DNA of 14,161 nt from a virus: IMG/VR virus record IMGVR_UViG_3300045391_005622, positions 1-14,161 of that record, one strand, 5' to 3'. Made by a program: the position numbers and the translations under genes. The notes beneath the pieces are model-generated. The model was not told where the DNA came from. It saw nothing but the letters and a program-made list of their open reading frames with translations, and searched no databases. How positions within the stretch are numbered: position 1 is the first letter of the stretch; every line of letters starts with the position of its first letter. Shown piece by piece: positions 1,941-13,992 of this stretch.

Positions 1941-3041
1941 GTGCTAAAAGTGCTGCAGATACCACACAGCCCATATAAGCGCCGCAAGCCGGCCGCAATT
2001 CTCACCCCTGGTTCACAAAAATGGGTAGACAGGCAAGCCCCGCTGAAGGCCTCTAAATGGCGCTCAAAGGAAGAGTTTGCCAGGATGACCGGCCGCGCGG
2101 ATCTCCTTGATAAGTTAGCACAACTATCGCAACCCGCGCTGGGGGCCAGTTCCAGCAACGGATCGGAAAAGGAATTTCTGCGGAAAAGAGCCAAACGGAA
2201 ATATTTCACGCAGTACCTGGCAGGCCAGCTGGCCATGCTCGAAAGCCCGTTAAAAAAAGCCTATCGCAATTCACTGCATTGCTGCAGTGAATTAAAGCAG
2301 CACGAAGACAAGATAACCGCGAAGTATTGTAAAAACCGCTGGTGCATGGTATGCAATTCTATACGCACGGCTAAAAATATCAATGGGTATGAGCCGGAAT
2401 TTAAAAAGCTGTTAGATCCTCAATTCCTTACGCTGACCGTTCCCAACGTCAAAAAAGATGAACTACGGGAAACAATCCGGTGCATGAAAAAGACCTGGCA
2501 GGCCGTATATAAAAAGTTCCACCGGCAATGCCAGAAACTAAAAATTAAGCTGGTTGGGGTGCAAAAATTGGAATGCACCTATAATGCAGTAGAGGACACA
2601 TATCACCCTCATTTTCACTTCATTATAGATGGAAAGCCGATTGCATCGGCAATACATGATGAATGGTTGGCCCGGTTTCCATCGGCTAGGCGTGCAGCGC
2701 AAGATCTTCGCCCTGCGGATCTCAATTCAATGAAGGAAATGTTTAAATATTTTACCAAAGTTGTTACCACCAGTGGCAACACCAGGCGGATCTATATTCC
2801 TGCAATGGACGTAATTTTTCAAGCCATGCAGGGCTTTAGAGTTTTTCAACCGTTTGGCATAAAGGCGGTGAATGATGAACCGGACGACCTGGAAGCAATT
2901 ACCCTGGAAGAAAAAGTAGATCAGCTTGTCTGGTGGAAATGGACGGGTAACGATTGGCACGACACAGCAACCGGCAAACCATTAACCGGCTTTGAACGTG
3001 TAACGGTATATGATGAACTCTTTAAAAATGCAGCTTTGTAG
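1941..3041 (+). CDS. rep: Rolling-circle replication initiator, pC194/pUB110 (Rep_1) type HUH endonuclease
   Basis: All family motifs are visible: Cys cluster YCKNRWCMVCNSIR, motif I FLTLTVPN, HUH motif YHPHFHFII, and the catalytic E-x3-Y motif MKEMFKYFTK. The ORF opens at GTG 1941. ATG 2085 (MTGRADLL...) is an equally plausible or better start. Confidence 0.9.
   Translation: MLKVLQIPHSPYKRRKPAAILTPGSQKWVDRQAPLKASKWRSKEEFARMTGRADLLDKLAQLSQPALGASSSNGSEKEFLRKRAKRKYFTQYLAGQLAMLESPLKKAYRNSLHCCSELKQHEDKITAKYCKNRWCMVCNSIRTAKNINGYEPEFKKLLDPQFLTLTVPNVKKDELRETIRCMKKTWQAVYKKFHRQCQKLKIKLVGVQKLECTYNAVEDTYHPHFHFIIDGKPIASAIHDEWLARFPSARRAAQDLRPADLNSMKEMFKYFTKVVTTSGNTRRIYIPAMDVIFQAMQGFRVFQPFGIKAVNDEPDDLEAITLEEKVDQLVWWKWTGNDWHDTATGKPLTGFERVTVYDELFKNAAL
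2106..2112 (+). promoter_or_regulatory. Candidate double-strand-origin nick site (CTTGATA)
   Basis: This is the only CTTGATA I found in the window. It matches the CTTG/ATA nick core of pC194, pUB110 and phiX174 origins. It lies in the 5' part of rep, between short inverted repeats gcgcgg (2095-2100) and ccgcgc (2143-2148). A 7-mer alone is expected about once by chance. Confidence 0.3.
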
Positions 3042-4250: not shown

Positions 4251-4700
4251 TTGAAAACCGAGAAACTTCTCCTCTACGGCGCTGCCGGCATTGCAGTATT
4301 TGCGATCTTTTCAAAAGCCCGCGCGCTGGGTAACCTGGTATTTACACCAGGTACAGTTTCCGCAATGGGTTTTACAAATGGAGTTCCCACCGCTGATGTG
4401 ACATTGATCGCACAAAATACCAGTACCACTGGCCTTACCATTAACAGCTTTGCCGGCAACGTCTTTTCAAATAATATTCTAATCGGCAATATTTTCAGCT
4501 TCGCCCCGGTGCATATTTCCGGCAATTCCCAAACACCTATCAACGTATCAATACAGTTTAAACCCCTTGGCGTTGTAACTGACTTAATCAGCGCATGGAA
4601 TACAAATAATTTTTCACAGGATATCACAGTAGAGGGCTTTGCAAATGTGCTAGGGCTGCAGCTGCCAATTAATTTACGTTTTAAGTTTGGCACCCCTTAA
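4251..4700 (+). CDS. N-terminally membrane-anchored beta-rich structural protein (149 aa)
   Basis: TTG start. N-terminal helix KLLLYGAAGIAVFAIFSKAR is followed by an alternating beta-strand pattern (LVFTPGTVSAMGF..ADVTLIAQNTS..LTINSFAGNVF) that loosely resembles LEA_2/WHy-type beta-sandwiches. That fold assignment is tentative. Confidence 0.7.
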   Translation: MKTEKLLLYGAAGIAVFAIFSKARALGNLVFTPGTVSAMGFTNGVPTADVTLIAQNTSTTGLTINSFAGNVFSNNILIGNIFSFAPVHISGNSQTPINVSIQFKPLGVVTDLISAWNTNNFSQDITVEGFANVLGLQLPINLRFKFGTP

Positions 4701-7231: not shown

Positions 7232-7825
7232 ATGTCAAACGCACTGAAGGCGATCAACAAAAGGGTAAAAGCCCTGGCCAAAAAGCATCCAAAAAGCAAA
7301 CGTTCTACGCTGCAGAAACAAGCCGGCCGCGAATGGAAAGCCGGCAAGCTGAAAGCCAGGCGCAAAAAAGTTGCAGTGAAAAAAGTTGTACGCAAAAAAC
7401 GTGCAACGGCAAAACGCACGCCCCGCAAAGTTGGCAAGCCCACAACAGTTGTGTACAGCCTGGGTAAGTTGATAAAACGCAAGCGCAGGAAGGCTGCACC
7501 AAAAAAACGCAGCCATACAAGGCGCAAGGTATCCGGTAGCGGTAAGAGTTCATTAACACCATTGTTATTGGTTGGCGGCTTAGGCCTGGCAGCTTACATG
7601 CTGTTTAAAAGTAATGCTGCACCGCAACAACAATTGTATACTACCAACAACCCGCAAAGAGATGCAAGCGCAAACAATATTTTATTGTATGCAACAGCTG
7701 CAGGCATGACAGCAAAAGCAATTGCCGATCTCATCAATGCAATAAATAAAAGCAGTGATGCTGCAGTAATTAACGCGGCGCAAAATCCGCAAACTGCAAT
7801 CGATCAGCTGTTAAGTGGTGATTGA
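7232..7825 (+). CDS. Protamine-like, highly basic DNA-binding candidate fused to a TM anchor (197 aa)
   Basis: I count about 43 Lys/Arg and one acidic residue in the first ~107 residues. These are followed by SLTPLLLVGGLGLAAYMLF and a polar C-terminal tail. Confidence 0.8.
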   Translation: MSNALKAINKRVKALAKKHPKSKRSTLQKQAGREWKAGKLKARRKKVAVKKVVRKKRATAKRTPRKVGKPTTVVYSLGKLIKRKRRKAAPKKRSHTRRKVSGSGKSSLTPLLLVGGLGLAAYMLFKSNAAPQQQLYTTNNPQRDASANNILLYATAAGMTAKAIADLINAINKSSDAAVINAAQNPQTAIDQLLSGD

Positions 7826-8048: not shown

Positions 8049-8672
8049 ATGGCTAAAAAGAAAAAGTCACACAAGCGCAGAAAAGTTTCTGGCCTGGGTG
8101 CAATGCTCAATCCAAAAAGCCCATTGGTAAAACTCGCAGCTATTGCCGGCGGTTACCTGATGGCAGACACGATCAACGACAATTTAAAAAAGCTGGTGCC
8201 AGATTCATTGACAAAGCCCACAGCGGCAACGGCAACAACCCCGGCAAAGCCTGCAACCTTATCAGCTGACACACTCGATCAGATTATGATCGCTGGTGAA
8301 GTTGGCCTGGGTGCATTGCTGATGCTGAAGGGCAAACCGTCCCTGGTGAAAGACATTGCCGGCGGCGTGCTTGCTGGTGCAGGTCTGAAACTGGCCCTGG
8401 TATCATTCGATATAATTAAACCTGCAGCGGTTACCGGTTACCAACGTGTACCAGTGATCGGCGGCTATCAAAAAGTACCTGTTATTGGCAACGTGCCAGC
8501 GCAGCTGCAGGGAACAGTAGCCAGCAAGCCAGCGCAGCTGCAGGGCTACCGTGTGAACGGTTACAATAACCAGGGCAGCGGCGCTGTAATGGGTTCATTG
8601 TTTACCACTGCAGACGCGGCCAATGGTACAGGGTCAGGCCTGGCACATGGTAATAGCGGTTATATGAACTAA
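8049..8672 (+). CDS. Membrane-associated structural protein (207 aa) with internal peptide repeats
   Basis: Basic N-terminus MAKKKKSHKRRKVSGLG resembles HTRRKVSGSG of ORF 7232. Has hydrophobic segments. Repeats are GYQRVPVIG/GYQKVPVIG and PAQLQG x2. Confidence 0.8.
   Translation: MAKKKKSHKRRKVSGLGAMLNPKSPLVKLAAIAGGYLMADTINDNLKKLVPDSLTKPTAATATTPAKPATLSADTLDQIMIAGEVGLGALLMLKGKPSLVKDIAGGVLAGAGLKLALVSFDIIKPAAVTGYQRVPVIGGYQKVPVIGNVPAQLQGTVASKPAQLQGYRVNGYNNQGSGAVMGSLFTTADAANGTGSGLAHGNSGYMN
8495..8545 (+). repeat. 18-bp exact direct repeat pair inside the CDS (gccagcgcagctgcaggg at 8495-8512 and 8528-8545)
   Basis: Read directly from the sequence. In-frame with a 33-nt period, and encodes the two PAQLQG copies. 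Confidence 0.85.
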
Positions 8673-8745: not shown

Positions 8746-9456
8746 ATGAACAACACAAACAATGTGTCAGCTCGTATGAGTTTTGACATTGCACGCAACG
8801 TACTGTACAAATCCTGGATCGGATCATTCGGCGGCGATTCTAAGGCCTGCTGGGACTGGGTAGACGGCCGCAAACTTTCACAAAGCGAAGTAAGGTGCGA
8901 AGTAAAGCTGAACACCACCAATACAAATTTCACCTTTGGTGTAATACAACAGCAGCCCAACAGCAGCGCTGTTACATTCCCAACTGAACGCAGGCTGGCC
9001 ATGCAGGATAGCTTGATCGTTGCAGAGTATGGAATATTTGTAGGCGTTGCTGCCAGTGACACTGACAGTAACTGGCTTGCGAAGACTTACGGCAACCCCA
9101 ATGTATTTACCACCGCTGGTTCATTTGCAGCCATTGACGGCGGTTTCTACTCGTCTGGTGGCTTCCAGATGACCGTGAACAATGATACAATCATTCCTTA
9201 CCGTGGCTTGCTTAACCATTACTACAGACCGCAAACGCAGCAGATTGCAGCAATTGCAGTTGGTGCAGTAGGTGACCAGCTGCGCGGCGCTGAAGATGGC
9301 ATGATCACACAGGAACCAAATCTTCTGCTGATCGGATCTAAAAATTATGTTCCGCAAATCGTGTTGCCAGCTGCACTTGCTGCAGTTACTCCCAACACAC
9401 GCGCGGTGCTGATTTTCCGTGGCGTTCTTGCACAAAACAGCACTGTTATCAATTAA
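8746..9456 (+). CDS. Major capsid protein candidate (236 aa, beta-rich, jelly-roll-like)
   Basis: No TM segments and an alternating beta-strand pattern. It has the longest leader carrying the conserved motif and is followed by a terminator hairpin. The function is inferred, not recognised by homology. Confidence 0.55.
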   Translation: MNNTNNVSARMSFDIARNVLYKSWIGSFGGDSKACWDWVDGRKLSQSEVRCEVKLNTTNTNFTFGVIQQQPNSSAVTFPTERRLAMQDSLIVAEYGIFVGVAASDTDSNWLAKTYGNPNVFTTAGSFAAIDGGFYSSGGFQMTVNNDTIIPYRGLLNHYYRPQTQQIAAIAVGAVGDQLRGAEDGMITQEPNLLLIGSKNYVPQIVLPAALAAVTPNTRAVLIFRGVLAQNSTVIN

Positions 9457-9547: not shown

Positions 9548-10054
9548 ATGGACAGAATAATATTAGTCGCTGATGAGCCCCGCAATTGCTCTGAACTGGT
9601 AGAAGTGCCAGTGACAACCACAGGGCTTTTTCGGATCAACTTTCCCGATAATCAGCAGCTGCGCTCTATGCGTACACAAGATATCCGTATACAGGGTATA
9701 CGGTTAATCACACCAGACGTGGCCAGCTTTGGCCCGATCACTGGTTACCGCACCGCACCGGTTGCAGAGTTGAAAAAATGTTTCCTGGTGCTGTATTGCG
9801 AAGGATGGGAGAAAGCCCATTACATACCGCTGCAGGTGCTCAATGATACCAATATGCCATCCGGCACAGCTGCACACCGTTACAGTGCAACAAAATTTGG
9901 AAGTTGGCGCAATGTGGATTGGGGTAAGTCTTATATCCTTTACAGCAATGGCACCGGTGGCAGTGATGTTAGCGGCGGCAATTATGAATTTCTTTTTGAT
10001 GTAGAGTACACAAAATTAGACGCTGAAGGCAAGGAGATAATAGGGCCATCTTAA
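9548..10054 (+). CDS. Second beta-rich capsid protein candidate (168 aa; single jelly-roll size, minor capsid or penton)
   Basis: About eight predicted beta segments (LFRINFP, IRIQGIRLI, CFLVLYCEG, HYIPLQVL, SYILY, YEFLFDVEY). No TM segments. Confidence 0.5.
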   Translation: MDRIILVADEPRNCSELVEVPVTTTGLFRINFPDNQQLRSMRTQDIRIQGIRLITPDVASFGPITGYRTAPVAELKKCFLVLYCEGWEKAHYIPLQVLNDTNMPSGTAAHRYSATKFGSWRNVDWGKSYILYSNGTGGSDVSGGNYEFLFDVEYTKLDAEGKEIIGPS

Positions 10055-10946: not shown

Positions 10947-11771
10947 ATGATTAAAAAATTAATTGCAGTTGATGAAAAGGGCGAACCGGTAAAAAATGCC
11001 GTGTTCACTTTTACGCAAGTGCAAGCAGATGGCAGCACGGGTATTGTTGCAGTAGCTGATGGCGGGCAAAGTGGCGTGGTATCATTCGACACACAAACCG
11101 ATCCCAATTTATTTTCAAGCGATAACCATATAACAGTAGAGGCGCCAGGTTTTTTAAAAAGTGGCGTGGATGCTGATGTTATTGGTGATGCCTGGCAATT
11201 TACAATGGCCAAAAGTGCTTCAATGGTGCCAGCGTTAACGCTGGGTGCATTGGTGGCAGTGGGTGCCGTTGCCATCTACAGGAAAGGCAATAAAAGTAAA
11301 GTAGGTGCATTTAATGCAAAAGATGATTTATTGCCCTGGGTTGTTCCTGCAGCCGTTGTAGTTGGCGGTTATGCATTATATAAAAAATTCTTTGGCAAAA
11401 GCGAAGAGGACAAAGCACGCGATCAGGCGCTAAGTGATGACATTGCAAATGCACAGCAGGAAGAGCCGGCAAGAATGTTAGACAGTGAGATCGCAGCTAC
11501 TGCAAATGCACTGGTAGAAGATCTGACCTATTCACACCCCTTTGGAGACAGCGATCAGCAATTGGACGCGGCACACCAGCTGACAAAGCCAGGCACACTG
11601 GTAGACCTGTTACGATTAATAAAGCAATACGGAAAACACTATATAACATACTTCGGCATTCCTGCAGGCAGTTTCACATTAGAAGAGACAGTAACCCGCA
11701 AATTAGATCGGGAAATCATTGACGAAATAAACCGCTATTACAGAGCGCAAGGCATCAACTTTCAATTTTAA
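10947..11771 (+). CDS. Two-pass membrane protein (274 aa) with an N-terminal Ig/CarboxypepD_reg-like beta domain
   Basis: N-terminus IAVDEKGEPVKNAVFTF...ITVEAPGF resembles carboxypeptidase-regulatory-like beta-sandwiches (tentative). Helices are ALTLGALVAVGAVAIY and LLPWVVPAAVVVGGYALYKKFF. Has a helical C-terminal domain. Confidence 0.8.
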   Translation: MIKKLIAVDEKGEPVKNAVFTFTQVQADGSTGIVAVADGGQSGVVSFDTQTDPNLFSSDNHITVEAPGFLKSGVDADVIGDAWQFTMAKSASMVPALTLGALVAVGAVAIYRKGNKSKVGAFNAKDDLLPWVVPAAVVVGGYALYKKFFGKSEEDKARDQALSDDIANAQQEEPARMLDSEIAATANALVEDLTYSHPFGDSDQQLDAAHQLTKPGTLVDLLRLIKQYGKHYITYFGIPAGSFTLEETVTRKLDREIIDEINRYYRAQGINFQF

Positions 11772-11775
11772 TTCT

Positions 11776-12156
11776 ATGAACCATTGTGATAATAACGGCT
11801 TACAAGTAAAGTACCTGCAAGGCCGTGGCCAGGTGCAAGTGCCTGCAGAGTCAATGCAGGTGGCCAGGGTTTACAATATGTCCGTGCAGACCTATACAAC
11901 AAGCGCGAATGTATTGGTAGAAAGTAATTGTTTTTCATTCATGTTTACCAACCTGGGAGACACAATAGCCAGGGTAAACGGTATGATCATTTATCCACCG
12001 GCAACACCTGGTGCACAGCTGGGAGACAGCCGATCAATCAGTGCACACGTATTGGATCTGTTTAAAGGAAATATAACTATTGCTTTTGATCCGGGCGGTA
12101 CTGCGCCCCTCGTTGAAGTTGTGCAGCTGTATTACGCTGAACAATACCACCATTAA
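11776..12156 (+). CDS. Small beta-rich structural protein (126 aa), possible vertex or adaptor protein
   Basis: Beta-strand-dominated sequence with no TM segments, located immediately upstream of the spike-like gene. Confidence 0.6.
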   Translation: MNHCDNNGLQVKYLQGRGQVQVPAESMQVARVYNMSVQTYTTSANVLVESNCFSFMFTNLGDTIARVNGMIIYPPATPGAQLGDSRSISAHVLDLFKGNITIAFDPGGTAPLVEVVQLYYAEQYHH

Positions 12157-12171
12157 TAAAAAAATTAATTT

Positions 12172-13269
12172 ATGGGTTTATCTACTGGCTTTGGTGTATC
12201 TCAAAAATCAGAGGCTGGCGGCGGTATGCCGGCGCCCCCCTTCGATCCAACAAGTGCCCACAATGGCACAAGCATTGACGCGGCCGGAAAAGTTGTATTA
12301 GGAAATGATGGCGGTTTATATCCTGGCCCTGGTGCTTTTGAAAATACCAGGGAAATTGATATGAACAGCCATGATTTTTTGATCGGCCGTTCAAATAAAA
12401 CTGCTGCTGGAAATGTAATCATCACAGCAGTTACAACAGAAATTACCGGCCCGGTGCAAGAAGATAGCGCCTATGATTTTTTCCTGGTTGATCAGGAATT
12501 TAACATAGGCGGCAGTCCTGTTTTAATGCGGTTGGCAGTTACAAAAAGTTTTGCCAGCAACAATGCATGCTTTATGAAAATGAATGAAGCGGTTGCAGGG
12601 ATCGACATTCACACATTTAAATTAAACGGTGATTTTGCTTTCGGTAATAATGGCGCCGGCGGTATTATACAATCAGACAGTGGGATACTTTGGATACGGC
12701 CGGATGGTATTACCAGGTACGGACTTTTCAACGGCGGAGATGCAGAAATAAAGCTGGGTGACCTGGAAGGGACTTTCAGCAGTGCAAGGTTAAATATCTT
12801 TTTGGCAACCGGCCGGATGACTTTCACTGATGGCTTTGGTAACGAGTATTTGTCCGCAAGTTCACAGGGCGGCGCTTTGGGTAACGTTACAGATGCAACA
12901 CAGCCAAAATTAGTGGTAAACGGTAGCAGCAACGCGATCAGCGGGTATGTAGGAGACTCTGAAACTTTTAGAGTTGATAACGGTGCAGGCGCTGGCCTTG
13001 AAGCGTTCCTGGGTGATGTGAACAGCGTTGCAAATAGTACACTGCTTATTATTGATGACCGTACAGGCAACCAGCGGGTAACAATCACTGCAGCAAATGG
13101 CCTGGTAGTAAATGCAACCAACGGATATTTTGCACAGACCGGCGGCACGTTAACCAATGGCGCTGCAGCTGCAGCCGGCACGTTGAACAATGCACCCGTA
13201 GCTGGCAACCCCACAAAGTGGATCAAAATACGGGATGCAGGGGTAGACCGTTTTATACCCGCGTGGTAA
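12172..13269 (+). CDS. Spike or receptor-binding protein candidate (365 aa)
   Basis: Gly/Asn/Ala-rich beta-type sequence with a flexible Gly-rich N-terminus. The C-terminal motif GNPTKWIKIRDAGVDRFIPAW is of a kind I recall at the ends of phage fibre or spike proteins. It is the last structural gene before the lysis genes. Confidence 0.6.
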   Translation: MGLSTGFGVSQKSEAGGGMPAPPFDPTSAHNGTSIDAAGKVVLGNDGGLYPGPGAFENTREIDMNSHDFLIGRSNKTAAGNVIITAVTTEITGPVQEDSAYDFFLVDQEFNIGGSPVLMRLAVTKSFASNNACFMKMNEAVAGIDIHTFKLNGDFAFGNNGAGGIIQSDSGILWIRPDGITRYGLFNGGDAEIKLGDLEGTFSSARLNIFLATGRMTFTDGFGNEYLSASSQGGALGNVTDATQPKLVVNGSSNAISGYVGDSETFRVDNGAGAGLEAFLGDVNSVANSTLLIIDDRTGNQRVTITAANGLVVNATNGYFAQTGGTLTNGAAAAAGTLNNAPVAGNPTKWIKIRDAGVDRFIPAW

Positions 13270-13334: not shown

Positions 13335-13487
13335 ATGCAAACAGAACAGGCATTAAAAATTATTCAACAGCTGCAGGACGTTGCAATACAAAAAGGATTA
13401 TTTGCAAACGTTCAAACAGTTAACCAGGTATCAACAGCAATTGCAACGCTGCAGGCTGCATTATTAGAACGCAATGAAGGCAAGTGA
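13335..13487 (+). CDS. Small helical protein (50 aa), not in the supplied track; overlaps the endolysin start
   Basis: Translated by hand as MQTEQALKIIQQLQDVAIQKGLFANVQTVNQVSTAIATLQAALLERNEGK. Its stop at 13485-13487 overlaps the lysozyme ATG (13474) by 14 nt. No TM segment, so it is not a holin. Confidence 0.5.
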   Translation: MQTEQALKIIQQLQDVAIQKGLFANVQTVNQVSTAIATLQAALLERNEGK

Positions 13488-13992
13488 TAAATATTTAATT
13501 GCTGCAGGTGCATTGGTTGTGCTGATGCTGTTACCTGGTACATTAAACCGTGGAGATATGACAGCAGCAAATTTAATTGCATCGTTTGAGGGCTTTGCAA
13601 GCCATCCGTATTGGGACGTAAATAGATGGTCCTGGGGTTACGGCACCAGGGCGCCAGGGAATTACGGTTATGCGCTGGCCTTTCCTGATCCTGCAGTAAC
13701 GATCACCAGGGCAGAGGCGCTGCAGGAATTGCAAGCGCATGCAGATAGTGATTACAACTACCTGGCACCGATGATCACGCGGCCGCTAAGCGCTGGCCAG
13801 TGGGCGGCGCTGTTATCGTTCTCATACAATACCGGCCAGGGCAATGCAGACAACCTGGTGCCAAATATCAATGCCGGCAATGATCTGGCCCTGGAAAGCC
13901 AATGGAAAAAATATGTATATGCCGGTGGCCAGGTTAATGCCACCCTGCAGAAACGCAGGGAAAAAGAGTGGCAGATCTGGCAAGCCGGTTAA
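13474..13992 (+). CDS. Endolysin, GH24 (T4/lambda-type) lysozyme with an N-terminal signal-anchor (SAR-like)
   Basis: The catalytic region SFEGFASHPYWDVNRWSWGYGT fits the GH24 pattern E-x8-D-x(n)-(S/T)..GYG. It is preceded by the hydrophobic segment YLIAAGALVVLMLL. Confidence 0.85.
   Translation: MKASDKYLIAAGALVVLMLLPGTLNRGDMTAANLIASFEGFASHPYWDVNRWSWGYGTRAPGNYGYALAFPDPAVTITRAEALQELQAHADSDYNYLAPMITRPLSAGQWAALLSFSYNTGQGNADNLVPNINAGNDLALESQWKKYVYAGGQVNATLQKRREKEWQIWQAG

Follow-up and report, generated by a model that had tools for sequence, protein, structure and literature searches.

A polycationic membrane protein as a candidate genome-neutralizing virion component in an uncultured lineage of phages lacking a recognizable packaging ATPase

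The gene at positions 7232–7825 (+ strand) of IMG/VR virus record IMGVR_UViG_3300045391_005622 was analyzed in the context of the entire record, which is complete (14,161 nt) and carries a terminal repeat of 54 nt; this whole stretch of DNA is referred to below as the window. The gene encodes a 197-residue, basic, single-pass membrane protein (P0001), and its stop codon occupies positions 7823–7825. P0001 is best explained as a late (structural-module) protein. In the preferred reading, to which a probability of about 0.5 was assigned, it is a virion protein: a membrane-anchored polycation that neutralizes the genome and links it with the membrane of the phage in an ATPase-independent assembly. 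DNA binding, residence in the virion, the existence of a membrane in that virion and a position on its DNA-facing leaflet are properties that we infer for P0001. The initial annotation had proposed a genome-to-membrane tether. That idea drew support from an architecture conserved in at least 34 homologs, from a charge that tracks genome length and from the lack of a packaging ATPase; it lost ground in one respect, in that about half of the family does without the anchor.

The composition of the protein is extreme. Residues 1–107 contain 28 Lys and 15 Arg (43/107, or 40.2%), one Glu and no Asp, which bears out the earlier estimate of about 40% Lys/Arg with a single acidic residue. Averages for the 15 remaining proteins of the genome are 9.3% K/R and 9.6% D/E, and the next K/R-richest 107-residue window in the genome, located in the replication initiator (Rep), holds 25 K/R. 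The binomial probability of finding at least 43 K/R in 107 residues is about 1e-17.

An AlphaFold2 (AF2) model of P0001 was built on the family alignment, and the protein was divided into four parts. The N-domain (residues 1–40; positions 7232–7351, + strand) is a two-helix hairpin with the consensus ALKxINxRVKxLxKKHPxxKxxTLQKQAGxExKxGKL; its helices span residues 3–18 and 24–36 in the model, with predicted local-distance difference test (pLDDT) values of 88–98. Seventeen of its columns are invariant, and the mean column identity across both clades of the family is 75%. The K/R linker (residues 41–107; 7352–7552, + strand) contains 30 K/R and zero acidic residues and is predicted to be disordered (pLDDT, 50–64). 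The description of the entire basic region as protamine-like thus holds for residues ~41–107, which are of low complexity and K/R-rich, but not for residues 1–40, which form the conserved, predicted-folded hairpin. At the end of the linker is a juxtamembrane motif (residues 89–104, APKKRSHTRRKVSGSG; 7496–7543, + strand), the core of which, [KR]R[KR]V[SG]G, stands just before the transmembrane (TM) helix and is kept in the family alignment. The single, Gly-rich TM helix (residues 108–126, LTPLLLVGGLGLAAYMLFK; 7553–7609, + strand) has a Kyte-Doolittle maximum of 1.76–1.85, compared to 1.85–2.5 in the homologs, and was modeled by AF2 as a helix at residues 109–125. The remainder (residues 127–197; 7610–7822, + strand) is a neutral, Ala/Asn/Gln-rich four-helix bundle that is predicted to lie on the non-cytoplasmic side of the membrane. 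Its AF2 helices comprise residues 141–156, 161–173, 176–184 and 186–194 (pLDDT about 90), and residues N140, A154 and A157 are invariant. The 70-residue tail (16 Ala, 9 Asn, 7 Gln) has a net charge of −1, so the polar Gln/Asn/Ala tail reported earlier after a TM segment was recovered; in 34/34 homologs the net charge of this domain is between −2 and +1. No significant fold match was found for the bundle.

A word-indexed search returned 34 full-length homologs (37–64% identity, 191–237 residues, E-values of 1e-22 to 1e-59). Their N-termini align at the same Met as that of the ORF (open reading frame) at 7232–7825, and those with long contigs are located nearly all on phage-like contigs of 13–17 kb. 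The linker of the homologs varies in length (61–101 residues), in K/R content (26–43, with 0–3 acidic residues) and in K:R ratio (9:23 to 24:13), and the net charge of the N-region is nevertheless +37 to +51 despite this drift in linker length, sequence and K/R usage. The alignment therefore supports a linker that evolves as a charge-conserving polycation; such a pattern, charge kept and sequence drifting, would be typical of non-specific polyanion binders.

Database comparisons were carried out at the levels of sequence, profile and structure. In Pfam, P0001 matched only CbiG_N (E = 0.008), below the cut-off of that family and in the tail; no PHROGs family was found, and NCBIfam yielded nothing significant. 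Matches of the N-domain to PDB sequence profiles occurred only at E > 1. When the P0001 model was compared with the PDB in Foldseek, nothing matched at E ≤ 0.001; NTHL1, ribosomal L20-like and MLLE domains came nearest, at E of about 1–4. In the ESM Atlas, template-modeling scores were below 0.32 by structure, and no usable match was obtained by features. Acquisition of a host ribosomal or histone-like protein as a moron had been raised as a possibility, and it was looked for: no cellular histone-like, ribosomal or nucleoid relative of P0001 was found by Pfam, PHROGs, NCBIfam or PDB profile, and the homologs with long contigs lie on phage-like ones of 13–17 kb. These results support a genuine gene of viral origin and not a moron acquired from a host.

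The family was extended by running a profile of the hairpin against 1.84 billion representative sequences, which identified 224 clusters at E ≤ 0.001. The hairpin is at the extreme N-terminus of the protein in all but two of the 150 matches listed. Among 168 members of 100–400 residues, 84 have a TM helix (median length 208 residues, net charge +42.5). The remaining 84 (median length 138 residues, net charge +34) lack one; their C-terminal end is instead a conserved basic helix, …AKT.K.KRKI.K.I.EKK.LYRKL. The anchor-less form occupies the same genomic slot in a sister clade, as represented by two genomes of about 14.8–14.9 kb, L005 (gene at 9596–10015) and L006 (6896–7315); the sister-clade proteins (P0035–P0042) retain the hairpin and the basic linker, and a separate TM protein of 100 residues is encoded directly downstream of the anchor-less gene. 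Identity between the clades is about 76% for the hairpin, compared to only 35% for the capsid protein. In a divergent lineage (L014) the whole architecture is kept and the hairpin has diverged. Since about half of the family is without an anchor, the core function would reside in the hairpin and the basic arm, and the membrane tether would be a lineage-specific addition to a basic-arm protein. A soluble cytoplasmic polycation, as these relatives would be, fits a DNA ligand.

Net charge of the N-region was compared to genome length, with contig spans serving as a proxy for the latter, in 21 genomes of the anchored clade that were at least 14 kb long. The two quantities are correlated (Pearson r = 0.65, p = 0.0014), and the intercept of the regression does not differ from zero. 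Phylogenetically independent contrasts, calculated on a tree built without the linker, gave r = 0.62 (p = 0.003), and 16/20 contrasts had the same direction. The change in length of the gene itself accounts for less than 3% of the genome differences.

The mode of genome enclosure bears directly on this charge. The window encodes a rolling-circle Rep (1941–3041, + strand), whose match to Pfam Rep_1 (E = 1.2e-14) exceeds the curated cut-off. Walker A (P-loop) motifs were absent from all plausible ORFs of the window, the sole two matches being in short off-frame ORFs, and no packaging ATPase family, including the A32/FtsK type, was detected in the genome by Pfam or PHROGs. With a rolling-circle Rep and no packaging ATPase, the phage cannot drive its DNA through a membrane that has already closed, and the DNA has to be enclosed instead. 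For PM2 and phiCjT23, the published model is one in which membrane and genome assemble together (PMC6356626, PMC9719478, PMC11945456).

The orientation of P0001 was considered in terms of the charge on either side of its TM helix, which is +42 on the N-terminal side and −1 on the C-terminal side. By the positive-inside rule, the positively charged flank of a TM helix stays in the cytoplasm; this asymmetry would thus place the basic arm on the cytoplasmic face, and the arm is predicted to be on the same side of the membrane as the DNA during assembly. A pathway can be proposed on this basis. P0001 would insert in the cytoplasmic membrane of the host and keep its N-terminus inside the cell, where the hairpin and the +30 K/R linker would bind newly replicated viral DNA and neutralize part of its charge. 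The bound DNA would be held against a phage-specific patch of membrane, and membrane and capsid would then close around the bound genome without an ATPase. The neutral C-terminal bundle, on the other face, would be free to contact the capsid or other membrane proteins.

Reference membrane-containing phages were scanned for a strongly basic window beside a TM helix, and one strong case was encountered outside the family: FLiP CDS7, encoding P7 (ASQ41223.1; MF361639, coding sequence at 2703–2957). P7 is 84 residues long; an Arg-rich arm of 47 residues is followed by a TM helix at residues 48–68, the whole protein contains 28 K/R, 18 K/R fall within a 40-residue window, and the gene is directly upstream of the capsid gene. 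It is one of five proven FLiP virion proteins, and FLiP has a Rep and an internal membrane and no identifiable packaging ATPase (PMC7654751). P7 thus resembles P0001 in having a polycationic arm at the N-terminus and then one TM helix, in being encoded in the structural module near the major capsid protein (MCP) gene, and in occurring alongside a Rep in a phage without a packaging ATPase. It differs in being Arg-rich, in its length of 84 residues, in the absence of a conserved hairpin at the N-terminus and in a C-terminal tail that is merely short and basic; FLiP itself (Finnlakeviridae) differs from the present phage in that its MCP is a double jelly roll and its Rep belongs to a different family. 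When the P0001 family profile was aligned to FLiP CDS7 in hhalign, no homology was detected (probability 0.9%, with only the TM helix covered). The occurrence of the same architecture in two unrelated motor-less lineages would, by analogy, argue for a role in encapsidation. Genome nucleotides per unit of per-copy net charge number 337 here and 340 for FLiP P7 (net +27, 9,174 nt), a match that comes from two points and is suggestive only. The statement in the initial annotation that such an architecture was undescribed in phages is weakened by the presence of an Arg-rich arm and TM helix in P7, directly upstream of a capsid gene (PMC7654751). The FLiP and phiCjT23 literature that was searched states no function or DNA-binding role for P7; the PNAS 2017 FLiP discovery paper lay outside that search. 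No such basic TM protein was found, at the same threshold, in PM2 or P23-77, both of which have ATPases.

By analogy, P0001 may be assigned to the viral genome-neutralizing basic proteins, with FLiP P7 as its closest architectural precedent and with J, pVIII and the adenovirus core proteins as functional analogs. Protein J of the Microviridae is a basic peptide of 20–40 residues that enters the particle with single-stranded DNA (ssDNA) and neutralizes its charge. The genome is tethered to the inside of the capsid by the hydrophobic C-terminus of J, and J docks on coat protein F of a procapsid that has already formed. It is unrelated to P0001 in sequence. Unlike P0001, which has 197 residues, a predicted TM helix and folded ectodomain, and no Pfam match, J has no TM helix and operates without a membrane. 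Genes like those for microvirus F, G or H were found in the genome by neither Pfam nor PHROGs. The pVIII protein of inoviruses resides in the host inner membrane, captures ssDNA with a basic cytoplasmic segment and lines the DNA in the virion, and its positive charge sets the ratio of nucleotides to subunits. However, pVIII has about 50 residues and runs in the opposite order, its N-terminus being acidic and external and its four C-terminal Lys internal. The particle that it builds is not icosahedral but a filament, which leaves through the envelope by extrusion, and pVIII and P0001 are not homologous. The adenovirus core proteins VII, V and mu are polycationic and largely disordered and neutralize and condense the packaged genome; V also bridges the core to the shell. 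The Arg-rich arms of the capsid proteins of circoviruses and other circular Rep-encoding ssDNA (CRESS) viruses are likewise polycationic, largely disordered segments with this neutralizing and condensing role (PMC11945456). Neither the adenovirus core proteins nor the CRESS arms are membrane-anchored, in contrast to P0001, and the CRESS arms are part of the capsid protein, whereas here the MCP candidate lacks a basic arm and the charge is on a separate membrane protein.

Several points weigh against a genome-neutralizing, membrane-coupling role. The anchor is missing in about half of the N-domain family, and tethering cannot be the core function of that family. The hairpin is more conserved than the MCP (about 76% vs. 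35%), which could reflect a conserved host or protein partner and not DNA. The genome lengths used in the correlation were spans of contigs, and their completeness was verified by terminal repeats for the window, L015 and L005 only. In phiCjT23, which is motor-less and membrane-containing, there is no comparably basic TM protein, and such a protein is therefore not obligatory. The membrane of the virion is one that we infer only from the several TM proteins of the structural module and a jelly-roll MCP candidate with middling fold scores. Finally, the PRD1 membrane pinches off into the cytoplasm, and its cytoplasmic face becomes the outer, capsid-facing one (PMC6356626); in a vesicle of this style, the basic arm would point at the capsid and not at the genome. 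A phage without a motor, on the other hand, needs its DNA to be luminal when the membrane closes, which argues for an arrangement opposite to that of PRD1.

The PRD1-type topology is the foundation of the first alternative, which was considered unlikely: P0001 would be a capsid-to-membrane linker, with its arm confined between the outer leaflet and the capsid and making no contact with DNA. The ligand of the arm would be the capsid floor or the anionic head groups of lipids, and the arm would set the registration of the capsomers there; the C-terminal bundle would be luminal. The cytoplasmic placement of the arm by the positive-inside rule accords with this scheme, as that face turns toward the capsid in PRD1, and there is precedent in the TM proteins P3 and P6 of PM2, which register the capsomers (PMC6356626). 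A strongly conserved hairpin is also suited to a specific protein partner; against this, the hairpin is far more conserved than the MCP. DNA could not enter such a vesicle without an ATPase, the two MCP candidates are near neutral (17 K/R vs. 17 D/E and 17 vs. 20) and offer nothing obvious to match a charge of +42, the anchor-less relatives would be soluble, and the co-variation of charge and genome length is left unexplained.

Somewhat more doubtful is a non-structural role in which P0001 would organize replication at the host membrane, holding rolling-circle intermediates and not being packaged. The model for such a protein is p16.7 of phi29, a membrane-anchored, sequence-independent DNA binder that is early and non-structural and organizes replication. 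The rolling-circle Rep in the genome and the combination of a membrane anchor with a polycation on the cytoplasmic side are in keeping with this possibility. In p16.7, however, the TM helix is N-terminal and the DNA-binding domain is C-terminal, folded and dimeric; it has no polycationic low-complexity region and no homology to P0001. Moreover, in all genomes read, the P0001 gene is among late structural genes beside the capsid genes and ~4 kb away from Rep; a single gene (8049) separates it from the MCP gene. The FLiP analog in the same position is a virion protein (PMC7654751), and a stoichiometric scaling of charge would be expected of packaging but not of a few replication sites.

It is improbable, too, that P0001 is chiefly a genome-delivery (pilot) protein, one packaged with the DNA whose TM helix would help to form a conduit and whose arm would escort the DNA, although such a role is compatible with the best explanation given above. 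The small-residue motifs of the TM helix (GG, GxG) are suited to oligomerization, the arm is presumed to bind DNA, and PRD1-type phages build a delivery tube from membrane proteins (PMC6356626). Yet nothing specific speaks for this role, the anchor-less variants could not form a conduit, and a charge that scales with genome length points to many copies and not to a small number of pilots. A lysis function (holin, antiholin or spanin-like) was judged highly improbable for this small single-pass membrane protein of a lytic phage, as the lysis cassette is elsewhere (a GH24 lysozyme with an N-terminal hydrophobic segment at 13474–13992, preceded by a small ORF just upstream, with the P0001 gene about 5.6 kb upstream of the lysozyme), a 107-residue arm of +42 and a predicted folded 70-residue ectodomain are unlike holins, and no PHROG or Pfam lysis or holin family was matched.

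Part of the basic arm recurs in a neighboring gene. The ORF at 8049–8672 (+ strand) encodes a membrane protein of 207 residues that begins with the motif SHxRRKVSGxG, and an ortholog is syntenic in every related genome examined. A 16-residue stretch containing K-K-x-S-H-x-R-R-K-V-S-G-x-G is common to P0001 (residues 89–104) and to this protein (residues 2–17), with 12/16 identities (E = 2e-4). The two DNA copies (window positions 7496–7543 and 8052–8099) differ at synonymous sites, which suggests selection on the peptide and not a recent duplication. Both orthologs in the related genome L008 retain the motif (L008 4422–4480). The called start of the L008 ortholog of the 8049 ORF, at 4475, is an internal ATG; an upstream ATG at 4422 restores the conserved basic N-terminus (MAKRKKGTKRRKVSGIGAML). 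The shorter pattern [KR]R[KR]V[SG] was also found repeatedly inside the linkers of many family members. The 16-residue motif might serve for the docking of a partner, as a signal for insertion or as a site of processing. P0001 had been described as carrying a "shared TM anchor"; the upstream 6476 ORF showed no significant BLASTP match to it (E = 7.5), and the sharing is confined to the 16-residue juxtamembrane motif (12/16) in the 8049 ORF. The notion of one anchor module reused among the membrane proteins was accordingly rejected, save for this short motif. An adenovirus-protease-like cleavage at [VI]-x-G-x-G before the TM helix, by the transglutaminase (TGase)/papain-like domain of a 580-residue protein, was set aside as a loose match.

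In its AF2 model (predicted template-modeling score, 0.76), the MCP candidate (8746–9456, + strand; 607 homologs) is a single jelly roll; a long helix at the N-terminus (residues 3–28) comes before it, and there is no basic arm. In VIA-align, its best fold match was the PBCV-1 capsid chain (Z = 8.2, root-mean-square deviation 3.5, 127 residues aligned), followed by the SPV1 MCP (Z = 6.7), HHIV-2 (6.2), P23-77 VP17 (5.4) and the FLiP MCP (5.2). The best structural matches are thus jelly-roll capsid chains from membrane-containing viruses; Z scores of 5–8 are middling and in the range of common folds, and from the model they speak to fold, not to membership. With respect to the Helvetiavirae-like trait of two vertical single jelly-roll MCPs side by side (P23-77, HHIV-2), the first candidate is modeled as a single jelly roll, with a middling Z. 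Its homologs, more than 600 of them, are at least about 60% identical, are found on similar contigs and are far more uniform than the other structural proteins. Complex predictions for residues 104–197 of P0001 with this MCP candidate and with the second capsid candidate scored 0.00 in both runs, which speaks neither for nor against binding. The order of slots in the structural module (TGase-like protein, TM protein, the 7232–7825 gene, the 8049-like gene, capsid genes) is fixed in all related genomes read.

The plausible genes of the genome are nearly all on the + strand, and several membrane proteins are encoded in its late module. No Shine-Dalgarno-like sequence was found in the 30 nt upstream of any of the 16 ORF starts (16/16), and the leaders are A/T-rich. 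Because of this lack of Shine-Dalgarno sequences before 16 genes, the host is probably a member of the Bacteroidota, as for FLiP and phiCjT23. Neither megablast nor tblastn (E ≤ 1) against 50,697 GenBank phage records revealed a match. A search of 185,579 prokaryote genomes with an MCP profile likewise returned zero relatives, and no prophage or host was assigned. Those homologs that were sourced from NCBI are metagenome contigs; the phage is a member of a large uncultured lineage. One related genome of 14.3 kb (L016) has extra cargo between lysozyme and Rep, at 11164–12216, consisting of an ASCH/DUF3850-like ORF and a faint N6-methyltransferase-like ORF, both of which are absent from the window.

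In reviews of membrane-containing phages, a phage-specific membrane area is said to be one that "interacts with the nucleic acid" (PMC6356626), and the wording "a membrane vesicle wraps around the genome" is used (PMC9719478); neither statement names a protein. As to how DNA enters a lipid vesicle without, or before, a closed procapsid in FLiP-, phiCjT23- and PM2-type phages, the P0001 family offers a concrete candidate. The family is conserved and abundant, is present in hundreds of uncultured phage genomes of 14–17 kb, and has an unrelated look-alike in the cultured phage FLiP. A broader proposal, which is tentative, is that the P0001 family and, independently, FLiP P7 are the missing factor for genome enclosure in ATPase-less membrane phages: the charge per copy would be tuned to genome length, the rolling-circle product would be captured at the cytoplasmic leaflet, and the membrane would be driven to wrap around it. 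If this is true, the inner leaflet of the internal membrane would be the former cytoplasmic leaflet, the opposite of PRD1. The scaling of arm charge with genome length, if confirmed, would extend to membrane-containing phages the charge-matching rule of the capsid arms of single-stranded RNA and ssDNA viruses and of filamentous-phage pVIII.

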